Source: Deltaproteobacteria bacterium (GTDB lineage Bacteria > Desulfobacterota > Deferrimicrobia > J040). Taken from it: a stretch of 40,797 nt of DNA. Positions 11,524 to 36,079 of the stretch are shown here, one piece after another. Numbering within the stretch: the stretch's first letter is position 1; each line of letters begins with the position of its first letter. The notes beneath the pieces were generated by a model, which was not told the DNA's origin, did no database searches, and saw only the letters and a program-made list of their open reading frames with translations. The stretch covers positions 1 through 40,797 of the forward strand of contig RFHC01000076.1 in NCBI GenBank assembly GCA_003696505.1, in the 5' to 3' direction. The position numbers and the translations under genes were made by a program.

Positions 11524-11979
11524 TCAGAGGCGGAAAAAGACCTTTCCCCCTTCCAGCGCCTCCAGCAGGTCTTCCCGCGGGACGGTGTTCCGCCCCACGT
11601 TGCAGAGGCGCCTCCCGAACATGGAAGGGGTTCCTCCGTTGATGGAAACCCTTGCCAGGTAAACCGGCCTCCTTTTCACCCCCACGAGTTTCTTGAAGAA
11701 GTCGCGAACCTTCAGGAGGAAGAGCCCGAGAGCCACCTTTTTCGCCCGGCCGTCGCAGACGACTCCGACGATTCTCACCGGCACATCTCTCTCCTTACGC
11801 GTCTCCTCCCTCACTCTCGAGAGGGCGTATGCCGTGGAGCGGGCCACGACGACGCTGTACCCCCTCTCCGAAGCAAGTTCCTCGATATCTTCCATCTCCT
11901 GGCGGGAAAGGCAGAAAGGGAGGAGGAGGATGCGAACCTCTCCCGGAAGTTCAGACCCTCCCCTGGACAACCCCGTCAC
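11524..11979 (-). CDS. hypothetical protein, possibly DUF116-like
   Basis: GTG start in a GTGA overlap with the upstream stop, with AAGGAGGGG as SD. Segments ILLLPFCLS, RIVGVVCDGR and CNVGRNTVPREDLLEAL resemble, from memory, the C-terminal half of DUF116 proteins. It lacks the extra Cys pairs and the TM segments. Confidence 0.5.
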   Translation of the reverse strand: MTGLSRGGSELPGEVRILLLPFCLSRQEMEDIEELASERGYSVVVARSTAYALSRVREETRKERDVPVRIVGVVCDGRAKKVALGLFLLKVRDFFKKLVGVKRRPVYLARVSINGGTPSMFGRRLCNVGRNTVPREDLLEALEGGKVFFRL

Positions 11980-12374
11980 TTCCCCTCCTTCGCCGCGCGG
12001 ACCTTTTTCAGCCTGAGTTTTCGCCGGAGAGCGTCCGCGTAATACTGCTTCCTCTCGAGGGGAAGGGACCTCTTTTCCATAATGTTCAGGGAGAGAATCT
12101 TCTCGTTGAGTATCGCCACCGTCTCTTCCAGGACCCTCTCGTCGTCTATCTCCTCCAGCATCGCCTCGAGGGTGGCGATTTCCTTTCTCAGTTCCATCTC
12201 CGGAGGAAGGTACCCCGCGTTCTTCAGGAGTTTGTAGGCAGGTCTCAAGTCCGGGGGGACGAGAGAGAGGTCCTCGATTTCAACAGGTTTCCCCTTCCCG
12301 GGAAGGTTGTCGAACTCCCCCCTCTCCATAGCCTCCCGAATTTTCTCGTCAGCAATCTTCCAGATGATGTCCAC
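11976..12374 (-). CDS. DUF1992 (DnaJ-homologue subfamily C28-like) domain protein
   Basis: IADEKIREAMERGEFDNLPGKGKP is the family hallmark. The preferred start is GTG 12374, with GGAGG 7 nt upstream. The longer track ORF (to 12521) would overlap the upstream DUF1858 gene. Confidence 0.75.
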   Translation of the reverse strand: MDIIWKIADEKIREAMERGEFDNLPGKGKPVEIEDLSLVPPDLRPAYKLLKNAGYLPPEMELRKEIATLEAMLEEIDDERVLEETVAILNEKILSLNIMEKRSLPLERKQYYADALRRKLRLKKVRAAKEGK

Positions 12375-12391
12375 CGGAGGACCTCCGGTTT

Positions 12392-12691: not shown

Positions 12692-13102
12692 TTACCCCTC
12701 CTGCTCGAAGATGAAGAAAGTCCCGGTCCCGTAACTGAGGAGGCGTCCCTTCTCGTCAACAACCTCGCAGACTCCGAAAGCGGTGTGAACGCCCTTCCTG
12801 CGAATGCGTGCCTGAGCCCAGACGACGGGACAATCCACCGGCTCCAGGTAGTTCACCTTCAACTCCACGGTGGAGAAACGGGAGGAGAGACCCGCAAGGC
12901 TCTTCAGCGCAGCCGCGATAGCGACGTCGATGAGAGAGGCGATGACGCCCCCGTGAAGTATCCCCTGAGAGTTCTTCCACTCCTCCAGCACCGTGCAGGA
13001 AACTCTCGCCGTCCCGTCACCCACCTCCTCGAGAACGAAACCCATCCTCCTTACGAGCTGATGTTCGTTGAAGCGCTCGCGGTAAATCTTCGCGTCAAAC
13101 AT
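12692..13102 (-). CDS. PaaI-family hotdog-fold thioesterase
   Basis: ATG 13102 lies 2 nt after the EF-G stop, with AGGAG inside the EF-G 3' end. Supporting motifs: NSQGILHGGVIASLIDVA and the VELKVNYL core. The track ORF start at 13390 is a spurious extension into EF-G. Confidence 0.85.
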   Translation of the reverse strand: MFDAKIYRERFNEHQLVRRMGFVLEEVGDGTARVSCTVLEEWKNSQGILHGGVIASLIDVAIAAALKSLAGLSSRFSTVELKVNYLEPVDCPVVWAQARIRRKGVHTAFGVCEVVDEKGRLLSYGTGTFFIFEQEG

Positions 13103-13104
13103 GG

Positions 13105-15138
13105 TCAACTCCTGTCGAACCTGAGGAATTTCATCGTGAAACTCCCTCTTCCCTGCGTGAGGGAGCGCAGGTCTGTCGCATATCCGAACATCCTCCTCAG
13201 CGGCACCGTCCCGTTGATGACGGAGATGCCCGGCCTCTTGTCCACGGATGTTACCTTCCCTCCCCGTGAAGAGAAATCGCCCATGACACCTCCGAGGAAA
13301 TCCTCCGGGACGGTAATCTCTATCGACATGATCGGTTCGAGGAGGACGGGAGATGCCGCCCGGTACGCCTCGAGAAAGGCTGAGGCACATGCCACCTTCG
13401 TTATCTGAGGAAGGTGGTTCCCGTGCGGGAATTCGGCAGAAAGGACCTCAACGGAAATGTCCTCCACCGGATACCCGAAGGCGCCGTAACCTGAACCTTC
13501 CTCAACTCCCAGAAGGAGAGCCTCCCTGATGTTCTCGGGAAGCCCCTCCAGCGACTCTGAGAGGAAAACCCTGACTCCCTCGCCCCGCTTTCTCGGAGAA
13601 ACTCTCACTCGAACGCGGCAGGAGTACGGGACATCCTCGATGACCCTTTCGAAATAACCCTCCCCCTCGCCTTCGGCCTCCACGGTCTCCCGCATTATCA
13701 CCTCCGGTCTCCCCACGCGGGCGTTCACGTTGTAAAAGCGGCGCATCTTGTCCACCGATATCTCGAGCTGGAGTTCGCCCACTCCGGAGAGCACGAGCTG
13801 ACCCGTTTCCTCGTCCTCTGTCAGGTGGAGAGTCGGGTCCTCTTCGGTTATCTTCGCCGCCACTTCCTTCAGCCTGTCCAGGTCGCTCACCCGTTCCGGC
13901 TCGAGGGTTATGGATATGACCGGTTTCCGGATTTCAATCGGCTCGAATTCGATGGGGTGGTCGGGATTGCTCAGGGAATCTCCCGTCCCCACGTTCCTGA
14001 AACCCCGAACCGCCACGATGTCCCCCGCCTGCGCGAGGTCCACTCTCTCCTTCTTGCCGGCGTGCATCCGGAAAAGACGTGCCACCTTCTCCTTCTCCCC
14101 CGTTCTCACGTTGAGCACCGTCTCCCCGGGCCTGAGCTCGCCGGAGTAAATCCTCATGAGAACCGTCTTCCTCCCCTCCTCCATGAGAATCTTGAAGGCG
14201 AGGGCTGAGAATGGCTCGTTCACGTCCGGAGCCCTCTCAATCCACTCCCCCGTCCGGGGGTCCCTCCCCCGGGCAGGAGGAGCATCGAGGGGGGACGGGA
14301 GGAAAGCGACAACGGCGTCGAGGAGGGGCTGGACGCCTTTGTTCTTCAAGGCAGAGCCGGCGAAGAGAGGGTGTATCTCCCCCTTCAACGTTCCCCTCCT
14401 GAGTGCGGAGACGAGGAGCTCCTCCGGCACCTCCTTTCCCTCCAGGTAGAGTTCCGCCACGTCGTCGTCGAAATCTGCTGCAGCCTCCAGGAGCTTCTCG
14501 CGAAACTGGTGGGCCTCGTCCACGAATTCGGAGGGAATCTCACCCTCAACGACCGTCTTCCCCAGGTCCTCCTCTGAGAAGGTGAGGGCCTTCATTCTGA
14601 CGAGGTCGACGACCCCGCGGAAGGAATCCTCGGCTCCCATGGGGATAGTCACGGGCACAGGACGGGCGGAGAGCTTCTCCTCCATCTCCCTCGCAACCTT
14701 CCAGAAATCCGCGCCCGGCCTGTCCATCTTGTTCGCAAACGCGAGGAGGGGAATACCGAATTTGACTGCCTGATTCCACACAACCTCGGACTGCGGCTCC
14801 ACTCCCCCAACGGAACAGAAAACTGCCACTGCCCCGTCGAGGACGCGAAGGGACCGTTCCACCTCTATGGTGAAGTCCACGTGTCCGGGGGTGTCGATGA
14901 GGTGAATCTCTCCCTCCTTCCACTGAAACTGGGTTACGGCCGCGGTAATCGTTATTCCCCTCTCCTTCTCCTGGGGGAGATAGTCCATCTGCGCCTCCCC
15001 GTCGTGGACCTCGCCGATGCGGTAACTGATGCCGGCGTAGTAGAGAAAACGTTCCGTCAGCGTCGTCTTCCCCGCGTCTATGTGTGCAATTATCCCGATG
15101 TTCCGGATGCGGGACACTCTCTTCCGAAAATCTCCCAC
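13105..15138 (-). CDS. fusA: translation elongation factor G paralogue (EF-G2-like, 677 aa), not in an str-operon context
   Basis: GTPase motifs: [14 protein letters not shown] (G1), [28 protein letters not shown] (G3), ANKMDR (G4). Full five-domain length. GTG start with GGAGGG upstream. Confidence 0.9.
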
Positions 15139-15148
15139 GAGGCCCTCC

Positions 15149-17527
15149 TCAGAAGTTCTTCCTCGTCAGGTTGAAGGCAGATGAGCCTTCTATCCCCTTG
15201 CCCTTCAGGATATTATCGACGACCCTTCTCCCTTCTTCAACGGGCAGGCCTGACAGGTCGATGAGGAAGTCCGAAACTCCCGCCTTCATCACCTCCTCAA
15301 TAAAGTCGACGGCGCAGAAGTATTCAGAGGAGAATATTTCCGTTCCCTCCTTCCCGAACCTGACGACGAACTCCTCGTCGAAGCGGGAACGGACGACTTT
15401 CTCCCCCTCGCCGGGAAAGACGATGAGAGGACTCTTCAGGAGCGGAACGCGGGTAAAGACCGTGAATATGCCGAGCCCCCTCAGATACTTCCCCATTTTC
15501 CTCAGGTTTTCCAGCGTCAGCTCGAGGGGCAGGATGAACCTCTTCACCCCCATATCTTCGAGAGCTATGGCTGATGAGGTGTTGAAGACGTAAAGGTAAT
15601 GGTCGCTTATGACTTCTTCCAGGCGAATTCGTGCCTCCCGGAAAACGCGGAACCAGCCCAGGTCGGGAACGACGAATTTTCGGAAACCCATCCGTGAGAG
15701 AGTCTCCAGCCCCCGACGGTAAAACGAGATTCCCTGGTCCGTCTGCGCCAGGGGAAGGCGGATGAAGACGCGCTCCCTCGGGAGAGGGGCGAGCTTATCG
15801 GGATTTCTCACGTGGGATTTCCGGAGCGAGAGGATGATTCTCTCTCCCCTGTCGAGAAACTCACGGGCGGAATCCACGGAATCGACGGCGATGCTGAAAG
15901 TGAGGGGCCTCCTCTCCCTCCGCGACCCCTTCAGCCTGAGATGCCTGATAATCTTGACCCGGAGCGATTTCCCCTCCAGGTAGACATCTCTGTCGAAGGC
16001 CCGGGATGCATCGTCGAAAGCTCTGAGCACCTCCTCCAATGAAACCTCCGGCTCGCCCTCAATTCTCACCCGCACCTCAGAAAGGGGGATATCGCCCCGA
16101 TACGCCTGAGCGAGGAGCCCCTCAACCTCAGGGGGAGACAGCTCGAGAGGCCTGCCGGCGCCGGAAACGCGAAAACGGTATATTTGCCCGTATTTCCTGA
16201 ACCTCCCCTCCACGACGATGGCGCTTCCCCGAATCGTCACCTCGAAGGTGTGGCCTGCTGATGGAAGGGACGCGAAAGTTCTGACCGCCCGCGCGGTTTC
16301 CTCTCTCCTCTCCCTCGACGAACCCACCCGGAAAATCATATCTCCCGGTTTTACGGGCAAAGGGACTTTGACCCAGGGGGCTCCATCCCTGACCGAGACG
16401 ACGGAGGCGGTGAAACCAACTCCCTTCCCCGTTTCCCCGTCCTGGACCCTCAACCTCTCGCCCCGGGAAACCTGTGGGTCCCCCTCAATTCTCACGTAGG
16501 GAGGGGAAACCTCCTGCACCCTTCCGAGAAATTCGCCCACGGCCGCTTCCTCCTCAGAGGAAACGACGCTCCTCTCTCTCTCTCCTCCCAGGACCCCTTT
16601 CGTGCTCGGCCTGCCGATGACACGGCCGAGAATCGCCTTCCCCTCTTCCACGCCTCTCTCCGGCTCGCCTGCCCGTATCCTGTCAAGAGCCCTCCTGTAC
16701 GCCCGCACGACGTTTCTCACGTACTCGACACTCCTCAATCTCCCCTCTATTTTCAGAGCCGCGACTCCGAGGCGAACCAGGTCGGGAAGCACGTCAATGA
16801 GACAGAGGTCACGGGCGGAGAAAAACGGAGCCTCCACCCCCCCTGCGTCGTAGACACGCCTGCAGGGCTGAACGCACTCCCCCCTGTTCCCGCTCTTTCC
16901 TCCCAGGTAACTCGAAAAGAGACACCTCCCCGACAGGGAGAAGCAGAGCGCGCCGTGGACGAATACCTCCACGCCGATGGGACTCCTCCGGACGAGGCTC
17001 TTCAACTCCTCCATCTCCAGGTGCCTTTCCACGACAAGCCGGGCAACACCCATCTCGTGGAGCACAGAAGCCACACGGGAGTTGCAGTTCCCCATGAGGG
17101 TGGAAGCGTGTATCTCGGCTTTCGGGAAATAGCGCCGGACGATGCGAATCGCCCCCAGGTCGGAGAGAATGAGCGCGTCGGGGTCGAAAAGCAGGGCGCC
17201 GTGGACCATGTCGATGAAGCGGGGGAGTTCTCCCTCGAGAATTTGAGAGTTCAGAGTGAGGTAAACCTTCACTCCCCGGCTGTGGGCGAACGGCACCAGT
17301 TTTCCCAGGTCGGGGAGAGAAAAGTTTTCCCCCCTCTTTCTCGCGTTGAACTCGCCCAGACCGAGGTAAACCGCATCCGCCCCCTCCTCGACAGCGGCGA
17401 AGAAGGTCTCCAGGTTGCCCGCAGGGGCGAGCAATTCCGGGAAGGGAATTTCCCCCTTTCCCTTTTCCCGGCGGGAGCGGGGTTTATCCTTCTTCCTCCT
17501 CTTTTTGCCCCTCTTCTCCATGGTCAC
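15149..17527 (-). CDS. U32-family protein (peptidase U32 / Fe-S hydroxylase family), long two-module form
   Basis: U32 features: [26 protein letters not shown] and the Cys motif [12 protein letters not shown]...[10 protein letters not shown]. The N-terminal tail is very basic ([21 protein letters not shown]). The C-terminal ~230 aa look like a second, Cys-less U32/TIM-like module. The start is GTG 17527 (overlaps the upstream stop) or ATG 17521. Confidence 0.85.
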
Positions 17528-18372
17528 ACCCGGAAAACCCCCCGCCGGGAAAACCCGAGGTTGTTTGCCCGGATGTCGAGGGTCACGGTCGCCATGTCCT
17601 CGAGGGGAAAAGACGCCTCGTCCGGCGGGGATTCAACTGTGATGAACTTGACGTAAGAGTTGCAGGAAAGGCAGCAGCGGACGAAACCGCCCCGCCCGTG
17701 AAACGTGAGGAAATCTCCTTCTTCCCCCGCACCGCAGAGGAGGCACCGTCGGGGCGGATGGACCCAGAAGTTCTCACAGAGAGAGCAGACCAGGTTCAGC
17801 TCGGTCCTGTTCCCCCTGGCCGTTGCAGGGAAAAAGCCGACGAGCGGGAGAAACCCGCAGACGGGGCAGAAAGCTTCCTCCCACGGCACGCCCTCCAGAT
17901 GGTCCCTCAGTTCCCTCACGAGCCCCCTCATCTGAGGGTTAAGGGCCCTCGCGAGAACGAAGAAAAGGCTCTCTGTCCGCACCTCGTCGAGGGAAAGGTC
18001 TCTCTCAAAGTATCTCTCGTCGCGAGCGAGAAACCGCATGGCAGCCTCGGGAAAAGGAATCCTCCCCGAAAGTGCAGAATCGAGGAGGTCCGACATTATA
18101 CCAGACCAGCGGGAGAGGACGGTGAGCACGTAAACGCTCAACTCCCTGAGTGCCTCCGCGTCGATGGAAACTTCTTCCGCCCTCAGGAGCGGAAACCCCC
18201 GTTTAACCCTTTCTCCGACGAGGACCTCCACCGGTCCTGGAGGGTCCCACCGGGCTCCTCCCCCCTTTCCGGACATCCTGGTGATGTCCGAATACGCGCG
18301 GAAGAGGTCGGAAAGCCAGGGAAAGACCCGGGAAAGGTAGGCCACTCTCCTCTCAACCCGCGAAACGCCCAC
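17524..18372 (-). CDS. FdhE-like protein (four CxxC, rubredoxin-type)
   Basis: CPVCG, CSLCE, CLLCG and CLSCN occur with FdhE-like spacing and a ...YVKFITVE... tail. The preferred start is GTG 18372, with GGAGGGAG 6 nt upstream. The longer track ORF (to 18522) would overlap the divergent Grx-like gene. Confidence 0.7.
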   Translation of the reverse strand: MGVSRVERRVAYLSRVFPWLSDLFRAYSDITRMSGKGGGARWDPPGPVEVLVGERVKRGFPLLRAEEVSIDAEALRELSVYVLTVLSRWSGIMSDLLDSALSGRIPFPEAAMRFLARDERYFERDLSLDEVRTESLFFVLARALNPQMRGLVRELRDHLEGVPWEEAFCPVCGFLPLVGFFPATARGNRTELNLVCSLCENFWVHPPRRCLLCGAGEEGDFLTFHGRGGFVRCCLSCNSYVKFITVESPPDEASFPLEDMATVTLDIRANNLGFSRRGVFRV

Positions 18373-18487: not shown

Positions 18488-18700
18488 ATGTCGAAAAAAG
18501 TCATCATCTTCGGCAAGAACACGTGACCCTACACGATGCGCGCCCGTGAGGACTTCGCGCGGAAAGGGTACGAAGTGGAATACCACGACGTGACCGCAGA
18601 CCCGTCCCGGAAAGACGAGATGATCAAACTCTCGGGAGGCCGGCAGGTCCCCGTCATCGTGGAAGAGGGGAAGGTAACTGTCGGTTACGGGGGTACCTGA
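18488..18700 (+). CDS. glutaredoxin/NrdH-like thioredoxin-fold mini-protein with in-frame UGA (probable selenocysteine) at the active site
   Basis: The frame reads MSKKVIIFGKNT-[TGA 18524-18526]-PYTMRAREDFARKGYEVEYHDVTADPSRKDEMIKLSGGRQVPVIVEEGKVTVGYGGT-stop (18698-18700). One frame runs through the TGA. The TGA replaces the first Cys of the CPYC-type motif. The cis-Pro context (QVPVI) and the GY tail fit the Grx fold. There is a strong SD. The ORF is invisible in the track because the TGA splits it. Confidence 0.7.
18537..18561 (+). promoter_or_regulatory. candidate bacterial SECIS hairpin downstream of the UGA
   Basis: Lower stem UGCGCG (18537-18542) / CGCGCG (18556-18561), including one U-G pair. 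Upper 2-bp CC/GG stem closing a GUGA (GNRA-type) loop at 18546-18549. The 3' side carries an ACUU bulge. The apical loop lies 22 nt after the U of the UGA. Confidence 0.4.
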
Positions 18701-19415: not shown

Positions 19416-19898
19416 ATGTCCCCTTACTCGCAGGAAGTTCTCAAGTACCTGAATCTCGGCATTGAATCGGAACTCCAGGCCTACGTCTTCTACAAGAAGG
19501 TCATGGAGAAAATCAACGACGAGGAGACGCTCGAAGCGGTGAGAAAGCTCGCCGAGGACGAGAAGCACCACTTCCTCCAGCTGGAAGATGAGTACGACAA
19601 GAGCGTTCGCTCTGAGATGTGGGCCCCGTACAGAGACATCATGAGGAAAGAGGGGCTTCCCGACATCGACGAGCACATCTCCGAGACGCACAAGGAACTC
19701 CTGGCGCGGGTCGATAAATTGAAGACGAAGCGGGAAATCTTCGAGGTGGCTCTCGAGCTCGAAAAAGAGGCTTACGAACTTTTCGCCGGGTTTTACGAGA
19801 AGACTGACGATGAAGAAGCGAAAAAGCTCTTTCAGTTCCTCATGAACTTCGAGAAAGGCCACGTCCTGACGGTGGAGAACATGCTGAAGAACCTTTAA
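19416..19898 (+). CDS. rubrerythrin/erythrin-like ferritin-fold di-iron protein (no rubredoxin domain)
   Basis: Two E...ExxH half-sites are present: GIESELQAY...AEDEKHHF and ELEKEAYE...NFEKGHV. The protein is 160 aa. Confidence 0.75.
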   Translation: MSPYSQEVLKYLNLGIESELQAYVFYKKVMEKINDEETLEAVRKLAEDEKHHFLQLEDEYDKSVRSEMWAPYRDIMRKEGLPDIDEHISETHKELLARVDKLKTKREIFEVALELEKEAYELFAGFYEKTDDEEAKKLFQFLMNFEKGHVLTVENMLKNL

Positions 19899-20000: not shown

Positions 20001-20687
20001 TCACCCCTCAACCCACGGCTCGTCAGAGTCGAAGTCAATTTCCTTGGGTGGGCGGTACTTCTTGTTCAACTCGATAACCTCGCTGGAGAGTTTGTACTCC
20101 TCGTAAATGGACGTGAGTTCCTTCATGTGGTCCATTTCGTCGAGCCTTATCGTCCCGATAGCCCACTGAATCTCGGGACTTGAGAACGTGTTGAGGCCCT
20201 TCTCGCACAGCTCGATGGCCTTCTTCTCCCCCTCCAGGTGCCTCTCTATCATCTCCTTCACCGAGATTTTCTCTTCCTTCCGGGCTGATGCAGGCACGGG
20301 CCTGGGCGTGCCCCCCAGTTTTCGGATGAGCTGAGTGAGCATCCGCGCGTGCTCCACCTCCATCGCCCCGAATTTTCTCAACCTCTCGGCGAGTTTCCGG
20401 TCCTCCATGCTGTCGGCGTGAAGGTTGTAGTCGAAAATCCCCTGGTATTCGACGCGGAGCATGGTGTTGAGAAACTTCACGACGTCGTAATTCTCGATTC
20501 CCTCCCCGGCATACCGGGAAACCTCTTCGGCGTCCTTTTCCGCTCGCTCCTTGAGGTCCCGGAGAAATCCCTCCAGGTCGGGCATTTTCGCCTTTTCCGC
20601 CTCGAGAATCTTCAGCACCTCCTCTGCTCTGCCGGAAACCGTCCGGAGAAGTTCTCTGATTTCACCCAGGATGACTCCCTTTTTCAT
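20001..20687 (-). CDS. ferritin-like (bacterioferritin/Dps superfamily) di-iron protein with N-terminal coiled-coil extension
   Basis: Two half-sites are present: LRVEYQG...AMEVEHARML and LEGEKKAIE...RLDEMDHMKEL (E...ExxH twice). The protein is 228 aa. Confidence 0.65.
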   Translation of the reverse strand: MKKGVILGEIRELLRTVSGRAEEVLKILEAEKAKMPDLEGFLRDLKERAEKDAEEVSRYAGEGIENYDVVKFLNTMLRVEYQGIFDYNLHADSMEDRKLAERLRKFGAMEVEHARMLTQLIRKLGGTPRPVPASARKEEKISVKEMIERHLEGEKKAIELCEKGLNTFSSPEIQWAIGTIRLDEMDHMKELTSIYEEYKLSSEVIELNKKYRPPKEIDFDSDEPWVEG

Positions 20688-21955: not shown

Positions 21956-22456
21956 TCACTCCCTCTCTTCGAGGAGGAGAATCACCTCTTTGATGACCTC
22001 TGAGGCCCGTATGAGGGAATCCACGGAAATCCTCTCGTCGACGCCGTGTATCCTCCCCAGTTCGCTCCTCTCGATGACGCAGGGGAGAATCCCGTAGACG
22101 GGAATGCCGAGCCCCCTGTAATAACGGGAGTCGGTGAAACCCGTCGAGAGGTAGGGAAGGACGACGCTCCCGGGGTAGACCCTCTCCAGGGCAGACCGGA
22201 CGAGGGAGAAGTAATCCGTCACGGGAGACCCGGAAGGTGAGGCCGCGTAAATCACCTCAACTTCGATACCGTCAGGAGAGAGAAACTCTTCTATCTCCCG
22301 CGCCACCTTCTCCGGGTCCTTTCCCGGCAGGATTCTCACGTCCACCGTCGCCTCCGCTTTTGCCGGAATCACGTTTGGCTTGAAACCCGCATCGAGCATC
22401 GTGAGGGCGACGGTGTTCCTCGTTATCGCCTCCATCTCCGGAATGGTCCTCGCCAC
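21956..22456 (-). CDS. M20-family metallopeptidase, C-terminal part (frameshifted; see 22423..23223)
   Basis: TRNTVALTMLDAGFKPNVIPAKAEATVDVRILPG is the dimerisation-domain end. STGFTDSRYY and GRIHGVDERISV are C-terminal metal and active-site segments. The track start is only an internal GTG. Confidence 0.7.
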   Translation of the reverse strand: MARTIPEMEAITRNTVALTMLDAGFKPNVIPAKAEATVDVRILPGKDPEKVAREIEEFLSPDGIEVEVIYAASPSGSPVTDYFSLVRSALERVYPGSVVLPYLSTGFTDSRYYRGLGIPVYGILPCVIERSELGRIHGVDERISVDSLIRASEVIKEVILLLEERE

Positions 22457-23223
22457 CTCTCCTCGAGCGAATCTCCCGTAAGCCCCCTCTTTCTCAACTC
22501 CTCGAGCATGAGCCTCACCGGCTCAGTGATTTCCGGCTGCACTTCCCTCGTGAGGAGCCGGTTGAGCGCCCTGATGAGCCGGGCAGGGGGGTCGGAAGGC
22601 GTGGGGCGGGACCCGTGCCCCGCTCTCCCCCGCGCGGTGAGGCGGAGCCAGACGGGACCTTTCTCCCACACGTTGAGGAGGAAGAAGTCTCCCTCCCCGA
22701 AGAGGCCCTTCACTCCGATGCCTCCCTCGTTGAGCCCGAAACAGTTTCCGAAGATGTTCCCGAAGGAGGAGACGAAATATCCGGCCCCCTCGTCTCCTCC
22801 CACCTCCTCGTCGGGGTTGGCCACGAAGAAGACCTTCTTCCTCAGCTTTCCCTTTTCCGAAATTGCCTTGAGCGCCCCGAAGAGGTGTGCCATGCCGAGG
22901 CCCTTCGTATCGAGGGTCCCCCTCCCCAGCACGAATCCGTCCCTCACTTCTCCGGAGAAGGGGGGAAAGGACCATTCCTCCTCCCTGGCGGGCACGACGT
23001 CCATGTGGTGAATGAGGACGACTCCCGGCTCTTCCTCCCCTCCCAGGTTGACCCAGAGGGATTCCTTCTCCGGCGAAACGCCCCCCTTCTCCGGGGAGAA
23101 ACCGTGGTCCCGGAGGAGAGCTTCGAGGAAATCCACGGCTTTCGAGCAGTCGCCGGGAGGATTCACCGTCTCTATCCTGATGTACTCGCAGAGAGACTCC
23201 ACAAGTTTTTCGTCCAGTGACAT
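22423..23223 (-). CDS. M20-family metallopeptidase, N-terminal part (frameshifted)
   Basis: Metal-ligand motifs: VVLIHHMDVVP (His), GRGTLDTKG (Asp), NPDEEVGG (Glu-Glu). EKGPVWLRLTARGRAGHGSRP marks the start of the dimerisation domain. The frame ends in the nonsense tail WRGPFRRWRR. It overlaps the second ORF by 34 nt. Confidence 0.7.
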   Translation of the reverse strand: MSLDEKLVESLCEYIRIETVNPPGDCSKAVDFLEALLRDHGFSPEKGGVSPEKESLWVNLGGEEEPGVVLIHHMDVVPAREEEWSFPPFSGEVRDGFVLGRGTLDTKGLGMAHLFGALKAISEKGKLRKKVFFVANPDEEVGGDEGAGYFVSSFGNIFGNCFGLNEGGIGVKGLFGEGDFFLLNVWEKGPVWLRLTARGRAGHGSRPTPSDPPARLIRALNRLLTREVQPEITEPVRLMLEELRKRGLTGDSLEERWRGPFRRWRR

Positions 23224-23270: not shown

Positions 23271-23867
23271 TCAAAATCTCGCCGTGCCCTTCCTCAATTC
23301 CACGAGGACGAGCTTGATAATCGCCTTCAGCGTCTCGAAGACGCCTATCCCCTTCGTGGCAACCGCTTCAAATTCGGGCACGTTTCGATAGTTCAGGAGG
23401 GAGTGAAGTTCCGAGACAGAAGCGATTTCCTTCAGGTCTCTCTTGTTGTACTGGAGGACGAGGGGAATCCTGTCCAGGTCGTATCCCTGCTCCTTCAGAT
23501 TCACGCGGAGGTTTTCGAAACTCTCCACGTTGGCGTCCATCCGGGAAATCTGTGAGTCCGCAACGAAGACGACACCGTCAACCCCCTTCAGAATCAGCTT
23601 CCGGCTGGCGTCGTAGAAGACCTGCCCCGGCACGGTGTAGAGGTGAAAGCGCGTCTTGAAGCCCCTCACATCCCCCAGGGAGAGGGGAAGGAAGTCGAAG
23701 AAGAGGGTCCGCTCCGTTTCGGTGGCGAGGGATATGAGCTTTCCCCGCGCCTCGGGCTTCATCCGGGAATAGATGTACTGGAGGTTGGTGGTCTTCCCGC
23801 AGAGGCCCGGCCCGTAGTAGACGATTTTGCAGTTGATTTCCCGCGCTGAGTAGTTGATGAACGACAT
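23271..23867 (-). CDS. mglA: Ras-like small GTPase MglA
   Basis: Near-identical hallmarks to Myxococcus MglA: [82 protein letters not shown] and QYNKRD. Confidence 0.95.
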
Positions 23868-23884: not shown

Positions 23885-24391
23885 CTACTTGAAGAGCTTG
23901 TCGATATCCTCGTCCGTAATCTCCTCGAAGAGGTCTCCGCTTTCCGCTTCCTTCATCTTCTCCTCCACGGTCCGTATGAGGTCGCTTATCTCTCCGCTAA
24001 CCCGGGAAACCTTCAGCCTGACGAGTCCCACCGGAGTGGTCACGTCGAAGATAACGACGAGAATCACCCGGTCCGCGATGAGGGAGATGTGCATGTTGTC
24101 GTGTTCGCCCTGGTGAAAGAGGATGGAGAACTCTTTCTCCCCGATGAGCCGGGCGAGACCTCCGCTGGCCGCGATGTTCCCCGCCGCAAGGGACCCGAGC
24201 GCCGTCGTGTCGTACTCCCCCTCGTCGCCGGCAGAGCAGAGGAGCTGCCCGTTTTTGTCGACGAGGAAGACAACCTTCGCCCTGGCCTCGACGAGGATGC
24301 GGCGCAGGAGGGACTGCATCCGGCGGTATTCCTCTTCCCTGATAATCAGGTGGGTCCCTTCCACTCGATCCCTCCCGTCGGGTTCACCCAT
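23885..24391 (-). CDS. mglB: Roadblock/LC7-domain protein MglB (MglA GAP)
   Basis: It lies immediately upstream of mglA, as in the mglBA operon. Roadblock pattern: [13 protein letters not shown]...[21 protein letters not shown].... Acidic C-terminal tail. Confidence 0.85.
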
Positions 24392-34118: not shown

Positions 34119-35066
34119 TCAGAGAGTGGCTTCCCTGATGAGGGAGCGGGTCTTCTCTGTCCTCTCGGCGTCCCTCCTCGATTGAATCCTCTCCAGCTCT
34201 TCCCTGTACGGACGGATGTCGACGCCTTTCCCCCTTTCGATGCACTCGTCGATGAGGCGCCTGTAGAGGGACACCATCTCCCCCACGAGTCCGGGAGAGT
34301 ACTCCCTTCCCTGTATCTTCAGGGTCGTCACGCCCGCCTCAATGAGGGCCGGAATGTCGTCGAAGATGAAATAGGCGGTGTTGGGAAGGACCACGCTCTT
34401 CTCCCACTCTCCCCCATCCTGCCTCACCTCCCACTCGGTGAGACAGATGCGGTAGCAGAGACCGCCCCGGTTGGGGGACCCGCGGAAGTGTTTTTTCCCC
34501 GTCTCGTCGGGGGAGTGCTCAAACTTCGTGTACGAAGACATGGTGCAGCGGCCGAGGAAGGTGTAGCAGGTGGTGGCGTGGACGAGGACCTCGACGCCGA
34601 CGCCCACCTTTTCCCGTATTTCGCGGATGTCGTCGAGGGGCATCCTGCACTCCGTCACCACCTGAGAAGCCCCTGCATCCTTGTAAAGGAGCGCGTCGTA
34701 AAGGTTGACGATGGTGCACCCGACGCTGGCGTGGACCTTGATTTCGGGGAATTCCTCCTTCACGATTCGCATGAGCCCCGGGTCGGTGAGAATCACGTCG
34801 TCGATGGGGAAGGAAGCAAACTTCTCCATCTTCCGGCGGAAAAGGTCCACCTCGTCCGAAGCGGGGAGGGTGTTTATCGCCACCCTGATTTTCTTCCCCC
34901 TCTCGTGGAGGAAGTCGGCACTCCTCTTAATAGTCTCGTCGTCCATTTCGTATTCCCTGCGCCGGCGGGACCATCCGAGTGCCCCCACGTAGACGGCATC
35001 CGCGCCGCCCTCCGCACAGGCCTGGACCATTTCGAACGTCCCTCCGGACGCGAGAAGCTCAACCAT
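34119..35066 (-). CDS. U32-family protein, UbiU-like
   Basis: U32 features: ELLASGGTFEMVQACAEGGADAVYVG and the Cys pattern TTCYTFLGRC-x29-CYRIC (C-x6-C...C-x3-C). ATG 35066 has GGGAGGTG 8 nt upstream. The track ATG at 35090 has no SD. Confidence 0.8.
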   Translation of the reverse strand: MVELLASGGTFEMVQACAEGGADAVYVGALGWSRRRREYEMDDETIKRSADFLHERGKKIRVAINTLPASDEVDLFRRKMEKFASFPIDDVILTDPGLMRIVKEEFPEIKVHASVGCTIVNLYDALLYKDAGASQVVTECRMPLDDIREIREKVGVGVEVLVHATTCYTFLGRCTMSSYTKFEHSPDETGKKHFRGSPNRGGLCYRICLTEWEVRQDGGEWEKSVVLPNTAYFIFDDIPALIEAGVTTLKIQGREYSPGLVGEMVSLYRRLIDECIERGKGVDIRPYREELERIQSRRDAERTEKTRSLIREATL

Positions 35067-35118
35067 CGAGATGCACCTCCCTGTTTTCATTCCGGAATTT
35101 CAATTTTACCACAGGAAA

Positions 35119-36039
35119 TTATACGCCTCCTGCTGCGGCGCGGTCAAAATACTTCCTCCCCGTGGTCCCGAAGAAATACCCGTTGCAGAGTCCGTAACGG
35201 GCAAGGGACCTTAACTCTTCAAGACGGCTTTCCGACGGCACCCACCGTCCCGCCAGGAGAGCCTCGAGAGAATCCCTGTATATCTTCCCCACCCGATTCC
35301 TGTATTCGGGGGTCTCGTATCCCCCCTCTATTCTGAAAAAGGAAAAACCGCCCTCCACAACCCTGTCCAGGTGCTCGTAAAGGCAAAAGTCGAGACCCGA
35401 CGAGACCCCCTTCCCCACGTGGCGAATTACCCATTCCCCCCTCGTCAGCCAGGCGGGCTCGAGGCAGGCCTCGGGGCAGACCTCCTCCCCCTTCTCTTCG
35501 GTGAAGAAGCAGTCGGGGACGACCCCGAGAGGTATCTTTCCGTGGAGGACGACCGTCACGTCGACTCCTCCGTTCTCCCTGATATCCACGCACTCCTTGT
35601 AACTCACCTCGGGGTTGGGCCTGACCCGCACCACCCCCCAGGTGCTGAGGTAGCGCGCAGAAACGTCGGTGTACACGTTTGCGAAGGGGCCCGTGTGGGC
35701 GGGAATGGAGATGCCCCTCTCCTTCATGAGGGTGAGCACCCCCAGGTTGTTCACCTCGACGCCGTCCACTTTCGCCCGGACAGCAAGGTCGAGAGCCTTT
35801 TCGACGACGGGGATCTCCTTCATCCGGGGGGCAGCAGGGGTGGTCAGGTAAATTTTCTTCCCCTCGCCCCTGAGAATCTCCACCGCCGCAAAGAGGTCCG
35901 ATTCTTCCGTCATGAGGTTCCCCCTGTAGAGGTGGCAGAGGGGATTCCCCAGGTAAAAGGCGTCGTAGAGCGACCTGTCCGTCTGCTGGAGGTCCTCCAG
36001 GGAAAAGAGGTCGGTTGAAAGCTCAAATTCTCTCGACAT
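35119..36039 (-). CDS. U32-family protein, UbiV-like
   Basis: It has four Cys at about positions 36, 178, 189 and 193 (NPLCH...PDCFF...VCPEAC) and a TIM-barrel-like U32 core (KIYLTTP...GVEVNNLG). ATG 36039 is preceded by GGAGGT. The track start is a TTG one codon earlier. Confidence 0.7.
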   Translation of the reverse strand: MSREFELSTDLFSLEDLQQTDRSLYDAFYLGNPLCHLYRGNLMTEESDLFAAVEILRGEGKKIYLTTPAAPRMKEIPVVEKALDLAVRAKVDGVEVNNLGVLTLMKERGISIPAHTGPFANVYTDVSARYLSTWGVVRVRPNPEVSYKECVDIRENGGVDVTVVLHGKIPLGVVPDCFFTEEKGEEVCPEACLEPAWLTRGEWVIRHVGKGVSSGLDFCLYEHLDRVVEGGFSFFRIEGGYETPEYRNRVGKIYRDSLEALLAGRWVPSESRLEELRSLARYGLCNGYFFGTTGRKYFDRAAAGGV

Positions 36040-36079
36040 CAAGGACTACCTCCGGAATTCTCCCGTCAGGAGGGTGGAT

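Follow-up and report, generated by a model that had tools for sequence, protein, structure and literature searches.

A subfamily of long U32 proteins is genetically coupled to an elongation factor G paralogue with replaced domain IV tip loops in a lineage of uncultured bacteria

The present study concerns a 40,797-nucleotide (nt) stretch of DNA from a Deltaproteobacteria bacterium (contig RFHC01000076.1 of assembly GCA_003696505.1, hereafter the window) and, within it, an operon that encodes in this order an FdhE-like protein, a long protein of the U32 family, a paralogue of elongation factor G (EF-G) and a hotdog-fold thioesterase. We found that the U32 and EF-G genes are truly linked, in a conserved way that is peculiar to a single U32 subfamily. 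An EF-G orthologue lies directly downstream of the subfamily U32 gene in 13 of 13 loci, the window included, whereas no EF-G gene was found downstream of other long U32 proteins at any of the 57 loci (out of 75) that offered enough downstream DNA. A literature search found no publication linking U32 proteins with EF-G, and the association of an RlhA-like, putative U32 hydroxylase with an obligatory EF-G paralogue across a lineage of uncultured bacteria is a pairing not previously described.

The ORF (open reading frame) listing and the junction sequences confirm four packed, co-directional genes on the minus strand (Table 1). At the first junction, which reads ...CGG GTG TGA CC ATG..., the FdhE-like gene stops at TGA 17526-17524, and the U32 protein may start either at GTG 17527-17525, with a 4-nt GTGA overlap with this stop, or at ATG 17521, 2 nt past it. 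The U32 stop (TGA 15151-15149) is followed by the 10-nt sequence GGAGGGCCTC, which contains GGAGGG, and then by the EF-G start (GTG 15138), while only CC separates the EF-G stop (TGA 13107-13105) from the thioesterase ATG at 13102. An earlier note on this DNA, made from the sequence alone, had claimed four genes with overlaps or minimal gaps, and all three junctions are exact. The FdhE-like gene starts with GTG, just after GGAGGGAG; a longer ORF, to 18522, enters the divergent promoter region. At the other end, the co-directional run extends three genes past the thioesterase, to 11524, with a DUF1858 protein, a DJC28_CD protein and a protein of 151 amino acids (aa) without assigned family. Promoter and terminator scans of the window gave background level only. 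Tight gene packing is by itself ordinary in bacteria; it is the conservation of this packing in relatives, not the packing as such, that goes beyond chance.

The loci were collected from contig look-ups and from a scan in which the U32 family alignment was run against a single genome for each GTDB species, and their neighbours were identified by tblastn of the window proteins against all fetched loci, which gave 12 independent related loci besides the window. Across these loci identity is 42-63% for the U32 protein and 54-82% for EF-G, and the gap between the U32 stop and the EF-G start measures 1-12 nt in 11 of the 13, the others showing one apparent overlap and one gap of 164 nt. The U32 relatives (770-870 aa, 41-63% identity) come from uncultured 'Deltaproteobacteria', Deferrimicrobiaceae, Syntrophorhabdaceae and Thermodesulfobacteriota metagenome-assembled genomes. 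The next-nearest group consists of Geobacter/Pelobacter-type proteins of ~790 aa, with 31-33% identity, that carry both PF01136 and PF12392; the sole GTPase match near such other long U32 genes is CysN in Pelobacter. The reverse test, starting from EF-G, led to the same picture. Its 120 best database relatives make up one and the same orthologue group, of which a divergent member (P0376, 54% identity) is again preceded by a U32 protein, of 787 aa, whereas EF-G relatives just outside the subfamily (P0388 and P0389) stand alone with no U32 gene adjoining. When the N-terminal modules were compared by neighbour joining, the EF-G-linked U32 proteins grouped in a single clade (bootstrap 75), the extent of which coincides, within the sampling, with that of the EF-G orthologue group. 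The earlier note had proposed to look for conservation of the neighbourhood, and its U32 and EF-G part came through this comparison intact.

The conserved unit is, in order, U32, EF-G, hotdog thioesterase and DUF1858 CxxC protein. The thioesterase gene lies 3' of EF-G in 11 of the 13 loci and is lost in two, and the DUF1858 gene lies 3' of the thioesterase in 11 of the 13. The genes that flank the U32-EF-G pair vary, not only through this loss of the thioesterase: upstream, the place of the FdhE-like gene is taken by a LemA and M48-peptidase pair, divergent from the U32 gene, in most related loci (L003-L007, L121), this pair being absent from the window and from its nearest relative (L001).

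The long U32 protein matches PF01136 with 241.8 bits (gathering score 22.4) in two to three stretches, which correspond to modules 1 and 2. The four Cys of the CX6CX15CX3C motif in module 1 are invariant in 39 aligned members, and module 2, which is C-terminal, has no conserved Cys among the same members. A four-Cys motif CX6CX15CX3/4C has been tied to [4Fe-4S] binding in U32 hydroxylases (Pelosi 2019). The AlphaFold model (predicted local distance difference test, pLDDT, 83.9; predicted template modelling score, pTM, 0.83) is laid out as a basic tail, a first barrel, a linker (residues 309-330), a beta-barrel, an alpha/beta middle domain and a second barrel, with residues 1-25 and 309-330 disordered. 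Foldseek searches with this model returned generic TIM barrels only (OMP decarboxylase, aldolases), with nothing on the middle domain or the substrate, and a PDB sequence search with the protein gave no match.

Aligned by hhalign with 20 two-module proteins that bear DUF3656, the U32 family matches end to end (probability 100, E 6e-146, 757 columns, 30% identity), and even its region equivalent to DUF3656 still aligns with these proteins. RlhA is the synthase of 5-hydroxycytidine at C2501 of 23S rRNA; about half of RlhA1 homologues have a second U32 motif, in the architecture RlhA1 + DUF3656 + RlhA2, and the co-occurrence of U32 and DUF3656 is confined to the subfamily of RlhA (Kimura 2017, PMC5727448). 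The window protein shares with RlhA (YdcP) the N-terminal CX6CX15CX3C motif, with 37% identity to the E. coli RlhA N-terminal domain, and shares with the two-module homologues the second, C-terminal U32 module. Unlike RlhA, its subfamily has no detectable DUF3656 and no C-terminal Cys cluster (C572/C580/C611/C614 in E. coli), carries a long basic N-terminal tail of its own, forms a separate clade and is always coupled to the EF-G paralogue, which RlhA genes are not. On sequence grounds, we therefore file the long U32 protein as a probable sister subfamily of the two-module RlhA-type proteins, rather than as RlhA itself. The earlier note had considered that it might cluster with collagenase-like or quinone enzymes; its full-length homology is to RlhA-type proteins, and it is neither a collagenase-type nor a quinone-type enzyme.

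The same note had described a tail rich in Lys and Arg that looked like a nucleic-acid-binding appendage. This tail is present (residues 1-27, 14 Lys or Arg of 29) and is a trait of the subfamily, since tails 20 aa or longer (median net charge +7) were found in 62 of 74 subfamily members and in 5 of 34 RlhA-type proteins; its position has however to be corrected, as it is N-terminal, and it is disordered in the model.

With UbiU/UbiV and TrhP, the long U32 protein has in common the U32 fold and the four-Cys [4Fe-4S] motif, and its two barrels recall the heterodimer of UbiU and UbiV; presumably it shares their chemistry as well, with an electron acceptor needed. It differs from them as a single fused chain of 792 aa, the second module of which is Cys-less. 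All three NCBIfam equivalog cutoffs were missed by a wide margin (TrhP 201.3 vs 534; UbiU 177.9 vs 440; UbiV 49.7 vs 275). Moreover, the window contains a separate pair of short U32 genes beside ABC-transporter genes (34119-35090 and 35119-36042, both on the minus strand), which encode a UbiU/TrhP-like protein of 323 aa and a UbiV-like protein of 307 aa, all their scores lying under the NCBIfam cutoffs. Given this pair, the long U32 protein is unlikely to be the generic U32 hydroxylase of the organism. These data bear on the idea that the long U32 protein might hydroxylate a small molecule, a quinone or another aromatic compound, together with the thioesterase and the DUF1858 redox protein, the EF-G gene being a passenger. 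The UbiU score, the weak matches of the thioesterase to the MenI and DHNA-CoA hydrolase models, the resemblance of two-module U32 proteins to a fused UbiU/UbiV-like heterodimer and the aromatic by-products of UbiU/V chemistry (PMC10990095) are all compatible with such a role. We nevertheless consider it improbable, because the UbiU and UbiV cutoffs are missed and a separate UbiU-like/UbiV-like pair exists, because enzymes that modify lipids or quinones do not typically carry a basic disordered tail, and because no UbiT/SCP2-like lipid-binding partner or quinone-pathway gene was seen in the window. The position of EF-G between the U32 and thioesterase genes, coupled to both, is also hard to square with a passenger.

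The EF-G paralogue is closest to canonical EF-G. It exceeds the TIGR00484 cutoff (743.8 vs 659.4) with all EF-G domains present, its G1-G4 motifs are intact (Table 1), and among PDB entries T. thermophilus EF-G matches it best (686 bits), with EF-G2 (1wdt) at 261 bits and TetQ/TetM and mitochondrial EF-G1/G2 far lower than 686. The Pfam domain EFG_IV remains sub-threshold (22.6 vs 24). Both tip loops of domain IV are replaced: loop I, which is KQSGGRGQYGH in E. coli (consensus GGxGQ[FY]GH), and loop II, which is GSYHDVDSS in E. coli, with His583 (consensus H-[DE]-V-D-S). Ten aligned orthologues from the loci show this replacement too (an eleventh, from L010, was extracted in the wrong frame and left out of this comparison), and the canonical motif of either loop is found in none of the 120 best database relatives. 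In its place, the remodelled tip of the group shows a family-conserved ...[VA]EF[PL][HS][GS]... with an invariant aromatic residue. Fast translocation depends on the domain IV tip loops, which touch the codon-anticodon helix, and with both of them replaced the EF-G paralogue is very probably not the translocase, as far as its sequence can tell. The str operon context (rpsL-rpsG-fusA-tuf) is missing: neither the window nor any of the related loci contains a tuf gene or one for a ribosomal protein. That this is a second-copy EF-G, as the earlier note called it, is not readable from the window and can be argued from the lost domain IV tip motifs. Other EF-G paralogues (L122 5001-7031 and L123 5001-7031), of 676 aa and 51-54% identical to that of the window, have also lost the tip motifs (e.g. 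GGSYQEGASTELAY) and have no U32 neighbour; degenerate-tip EF-Gs annotated plainly as 'elongation factor G' may be widespread.

Several EF-G paralogues are already known, namely EFG II/T. thermophilus EF-G2, spdEFG2/mitochondrial EF-G2, Bacteroides EF-G2 and the tetracycline ribosomal protection proteins, and the window protein resembles them in being encoded outside the str operon and in having an altered domain IV, which suggests a ribosomal role other than translocation. It is much nearer to canonical EF-G than to EF-G2 (1wdt) or TetM/TetQ, it keeps the RGITI and DTPGH motifs in contrast to EFG II, and the NCBIfam cutoffs for EF-G2 and ribosomal protection proteins are missed (NF009377 335.7 vs 890; NF058620 339.3 vs 1000; NF012153 378 vs 775). 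Obligatory linkage to a U32 gene is reported for none of these paralogues in the literature that we found. A functional analogy can be drawn with Efl1/Ria1, the eukaryotic EF-2 paralogue of 60S maturation, for which the factor-binding site is used for subunit quality control and not for translocation; it implies no orthology, and a bacterial assembly role is not implied by our data.

According to another reading, the U32 and EF-G genes are co-regulated and mechanistically independent. The U32 protein would be the lineage's RlhA equivalent, acting on 50S precursors alone, EF-G would be a recycling-only or stress-specialised factor of the spdEFG2/mitochondrial EF-G2 type, and the single transcript would serve joint expression only, e.g. 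under anoxia or iron limitation. An EF-G partner is not required by E. coli RlhA and is lacking beside the two-module RlhA-type gene of Pelobacter, related EF-G paralogues with degenerate tips can stand alone, away from any U32 gene, and there are delta-proteobacterial EF-Gs that do not fall cleanly into either EFG I or spdEFG2, between which they are ambiguous (Margus 2011). Flanking synteny is conserved too, so that inheritance explains part of the linkage. On the other hand, it is difficult to explain in this way why the pairing is complete, why the 1-12 nt gap is held (11/13) down to 42% U32 identity while the flanks vary, and why, within the sampling, the U32 clade coincides with the EF-G orthologue group. 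We thus regard independent functions as somewhat unlikely.

The U32 protein might also hydroxylate the EF-G paralogue itself at its remodelled domain IV tip, in a bacterial parallel to the diphthamide modification of EF-2, which is Fe-S-dependent. The strict one-to-one translational coupling and the new family-conserved tip, with its invariant aromatic residue, would fit such a reaction, as would the ability of U32 enzymes to attack aromatic and heteroaromatic rings (PMC10990095). The basic tail and the RlhA-like architecture nevertheless point to nucleic acid, the proposal is pure inference and we judge it very improbable. To our knowledge, no U32 enzyme acts on a protein.

The first gene of the operon gives a different picture. 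Its product scores just under the Pfam gathering score of 27 (FdhE_C 25.9-26.3 bits, FdhE_central 19.7-20) and misses the NCBIfam cutoffs (TIGR01562 40.3 vs 187.65; NF002925 40.5 vs 426). Its AlphaFold model (pLDDT 91.6) has as sole structural match the P. aeruginosa FdhE 2FIY (template modelling score, TM, 0.64-0.66, E 5e-10), over the full length (292-298 columns). All four CxxC pairs are retained, as the earlier note had it, and all eight Cys are invariant in alignment with 25 relatives. A word-indexed homologue search matched only the protein itself. An exhaustive HMMER search of 1.84 billion representatives brought 1,680 relatives, among which the only close one is P0122, the product of the L001 gene (~45-46% identity), the others being full-length FdhE-family proteins with 22-34% identity; a metagenome search from the two-sequence alignment added distant relatives and no further close ones. 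In the alignment that we call A3, composed of the window protein, P0122 and 24 distant relatives, 24 of the 26 sequences match FdhE_C. With the same full-length fold (TM 0.65), all four CxxC pairs and a similar length as FdhE (2FIY), the protein is, judging from its model, a genuine FdhE fold on a long two-member branch.

What differs from FdhE is the genomic context. In about 20 of 27 metagenomic loci of distant FdhE relatives, fdoG-fdoH-type genes lie immediately upstream. In the window, by contrast, the gene overlaps the U32 gene and no formate dehydrogenase adjoins: tblastn revealed no FdoG/H/I or FdhD homologue in the 40.8 kb, and the 14.4 kb of L001 that were retrieved lack a formate dehydrogenase as well. 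Since ordinary FdhE relatives are linked to formate dehydrogenase, the window gene is a recent recruit, moved from that context to the head of the U32 operon, or possibly its product still serves a formate dehydrogenase encoded elsewhere. The earlier note had allowed for a formate dehydrogenase elsewhere as the only conserved partner of the FdhE-like gene; most of the distant relatives do lie by formate dehydrogenase genes, and the genes of the window and of L001 by a U32 gene. As for the FdhE-U32 coupling that the note put forward, the overlap exists in the window and the position is the same in the nearest relative, but it is not general: in the other 11 loci the gene has no counterpart, and LemA and M48 peptidase, or nothing, lie on that side.

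The FdhE-like protein could therefore be an ordinary maturation factor for a formate dehydrogenase encoded elsewhere in the genome, its place before the U32 gene being a recent, functionally meaningless insertion. The fdo context of the distant relatives, the FdhE_C matches across A3 and the rarity of the gene among the loci agree with this, and the lineage seems to use selenocysteine (see below), which is typical of organisms with formate dehydrogenases. An accidental position is less easily reconciled with the strong divergence of the two-member branch from all other relatives, with the GTGA overlap with the U32 start in the window, with the same position kept in the 63%-identical relative, and with the lack of formate dehydrogenase genes in the window and in the stretch of L001 that was retrieved. 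We see this as a real possibility for the FdhE-like protein, although we lean away from it.

Taken together, the U32-EF-G link, the homology to RlhA-type proteins and the basic tail of the subfamily make a ribosome- or RNA-directed hydroxylation module, as the earlier note suggested, a reasonable reading, apart from its FdhE partner, which is not general. Our composite proposal combines O2-independent hydroxylation directed at the ribosome, an EF-G paralogue dedicated to this module and an FdhE-type iron protein recruited recently, and we hold it tentatively, as having slightly less than an even chance. In the U32 protein, module 1 would be a TIM-like barrel that holds one [4Fe-4S] cluster through CX6CX15CX3C, and module 2 a Cys-less second barrel. 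By analogy with RlhA, TrhP and UbiU/V, the enzyme might carry out an O2-independent, prephenate-dependent C-hydroxylation, the substrate being perhaps a base in ribosomal RNA or in ribosome-bound RNA. The chemistry proposed for U32 enzymes combines a two-electron oxidation of the substrate with prephenate decarboxylation, and the electron acceptor is still unidentified (PMC10990095). The EF-G paralogue would dock at the ribosomal factor-binding site without translocation, as is expected from its complete GTPase and canonical EF-G body, and might act on the same ribosomal particle as the hydroxylase. There, it may hold or test the conformation of the subunit or of the 70S ribosome, as Efl1 does in 60S maturation, or it may serve in splitting or recycling of this particle. 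Through translational coupling, the ratio of the two proteins would stay constant. In the window sublineage only, a rubredoxin-like FdhE-type protein with 2 x Cys4 is encoded at the head of the operon, coupled by the GTGA overlap, and would most likely be an iron or electron partner, or a maturation chaperone, of the U32 Fe-S enzyme; the DUF1858 CxxC protein and a glutaredoxin-like selenoprotein are other candidate redox or iron partners. A ribosome-bound, GTPase-gated hydroxylation machine, in which EF-G delivers or positions the hydroxylase or is hydroxylated at its tip and small redox proteins supply the electron acceptor, seems to us unlikely.

A number of observations weigh against this composite proposal. 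No match to Pfam DUF3656 (PF12392), the RlhA signature, was obtained for any of the 39 U32 members with the threshold relaxed to E <= 1. E. coli RlhA depends on a C-terminal Cys cluster (C580, C611) that the window family lacks, and the Geobacter-type two-module proteins lack it as well. The four E. coli U32 paralogues are not told apart by BLASTP (RlhA 161, TrhP 152 and UbiU 143 bits). The phylogeny against RlhA, TrhP and UbiU/V that the earlier note had asked for recovered the EF-G-linked clade, but in its neighbour-joining tree the long branches of RlhA, TrhP and UbiU from E. coli come together, and neither deep placement nor RlhA orthology is decided by it. All 13 loci belong to one broad lineage in which the flanking MurJ, 151-aa protein and rubrerythrin-like genes are also syntenic, and part of the conservation of the pair thus reflects inherited gene order rather than selection on the pair. 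A canonical fusA would have to be present elsewhere in the same genomes. The FdhE-like gene occurs in just 2 of the 13 loci (the window and its nearest relative, L001/L002), and in L001 it ends ~60 nt from the called U32 start, with no overlap. Finally, the conserved thioesterase is not accounted for by this proposal. What the data themselves give is gene order, conservation, specificity, motif content and folds; the substrate, the chemistry, ribosome binding and the role of the FdhE-like protein are deduced.

U32 enzymes are the only known O2-independent, prephenate-dependent hydroxylases, and no in vitro assay exists for them (PMC10990095). A U32 subfamily hard-wired to an EF-G paralogue amid small iron and thiol redox proteins thus offers concrete partners that bear on the substrate (the ribosome) and on the electron path. 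A further outcome is an EF-G orthologue group that had escaped notice, with at least 116 cluster representatives, which are annotated 'elongation factor G' and lack the translocation loops; genome annotation would need correcting here, as would the number of functional classes counted for EF-G. An FdhE-fold protein outside a formate dehydrogenase context hints, moreover, that FdhE-type proteins might be general iron or redox partners, and not chaperones specific to formate dehydrogenase.

Table 1. Positions in the window of the genes of the U32 operon, of their motifs and of neighbouring genes
Feature	Position	Strand	Remark
FdhE-like protein, 282 aa	17524-18372	-	first gene of operon, lineage-specific
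FdhE-like CxxC pair CPVC	17857-17868	-	
FdhE-like CxxC pair CSLC	17776-17787	-	
FdhE-like CxxC pair CLLC	17734-17745	-	
FdhE-like CxxC pair CLSC	17662-17673	-	
Long two-module U32 protein, 792 aa	15149-17527	-	PF01136
U32 basic disordered N-terminal tail	17447-17527	-	residues 1-27
U32 module 1 CX6CX15CX3C	16862-16945	-	C195, C202, C218, C222
U32 parts after module 1			beta-barrel and middle domain, then Cys-less module 2
EF-G paralogue, 677 aa	13105-15138	-	TIGR00484
EF-G GTPase motif AHIDAGKTT	15061-15087	-	
EF-G GTPase motif RGITI	14947-14961	-	
EF-G GTPase motif DTPGH	14881-14895	-	
EF-G GTPase motif NKMD	14722-14733	-	
EF-G replaced domain IV tip loop I	13615-13653	-	
EF-G replaced domain IV tip loop II	13405-13440	-	
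Hotdog-fold thioesterase, 136 aa	12692-13102	-	4HBT/PaaI-like superfamily
Small DUF1858 ('hybrid-cluster-protein-associated redox disulfide') protein, 77 aa	12392-12625	-	CLSC at residue 36
DJC28_CD-domain protein (YhdN-like)	11976-12380	-	PF09350 92.8 bits; exact start uncertain
Conserved 151-aa protein without assigned family	11524-11979	-	last co-directional gene; 4-nt overlap with previous stop
Glutaredoxin-like small protein, 70 aa	18488-18700	+	in-frame TGA 18524-18526; divergent from FdhE-like gene
Rubrerythrin/ferritin-like di-iron protein, 160 aa	19416-19898	+	PF02915 39 bits
Ferritin/rubrerythrin-like protein	20001-20687	-	

Among the accessory genes, the thioesterase matches PF03061 (59.1 bits) and TIGR00369 (65.5 vs a cutoff of 36.6), and it falls short of the PaaI model TIGR02286 (40.7 vs 118.9). 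The label 'PaaI' used in the earlier note was therefore over-specific, and the protein is, by its profile matches, a generic hotdog thioesterase. The DUF1858 protein is a conserved operon member that the note had overlooked. It matches TIGR03980 with E 2e-8 and 34.1 bits, under the cutoff of 44.95, PF08984 is assigned to its L001 orthologue, and the orthologues share the motifs C[LI]xC and ETxxYT[AS][FW]H[KR]G[LY]DP. The DJC28_CD gene was found in the window, L001 and L003 only. The last protein of the run has no Pfam or NCBIfam match, and orthologues with 52-74% identity are encoded near 10 of the 12 related loci.

On the divergent side, an in-frame TGA replaces the first Cys codon of the CxxC in the glutaredoxin-like gene (FGKNT-U-PYT). 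This TGA is kept, as FGK[ND][TS]-TGA-PYT, in nine independent related loci including L121, always upstream of the U32 operon. The hairpin that follows it is no stabler than shuffled sequence (z = -0.25), so that it is the conserved TGA on which the protein is called, probably, a selenoprotein. Further upstream, the rubrerythrin-like protein encoded at 19416-19898 has orthologues with 54-78% identity upstream of the U32 operon in 9 of the 12 related loci. This protein and the ferritin/rubrerythrin-like protein that follows both give weak matches to encapsulin-cargo ferritins (EncB_fam ~35 bits vs 90).

Across its 40.8 kb, the window contains no formate dehydrogenase gene, ribosomal protein or tuf gene, tRNA or Rfam match. 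An origin of the region from a mobile element or a defence island was rejected in view of its uniform composition and of its conserved synteny with housekeeping genes such as MurJ. Elsewhere in the window, two ORFs that overlap in different frames (21956-22456 and 22423-23223, both on the minus strand) together make up a split peptidase M20 gene. The syntenic gene encodes a single product in L001 and L003/L004 (466 aa in L003), and either a frameshift or pseudogene or else faulty assembly accounts for the split. An MglA/MglB-like pair is also encoded on the minus strand, with a small Arf/Ras-like GTPase (23271-23867) adjoining a Roadblock/LC7 protein (23885-24391).

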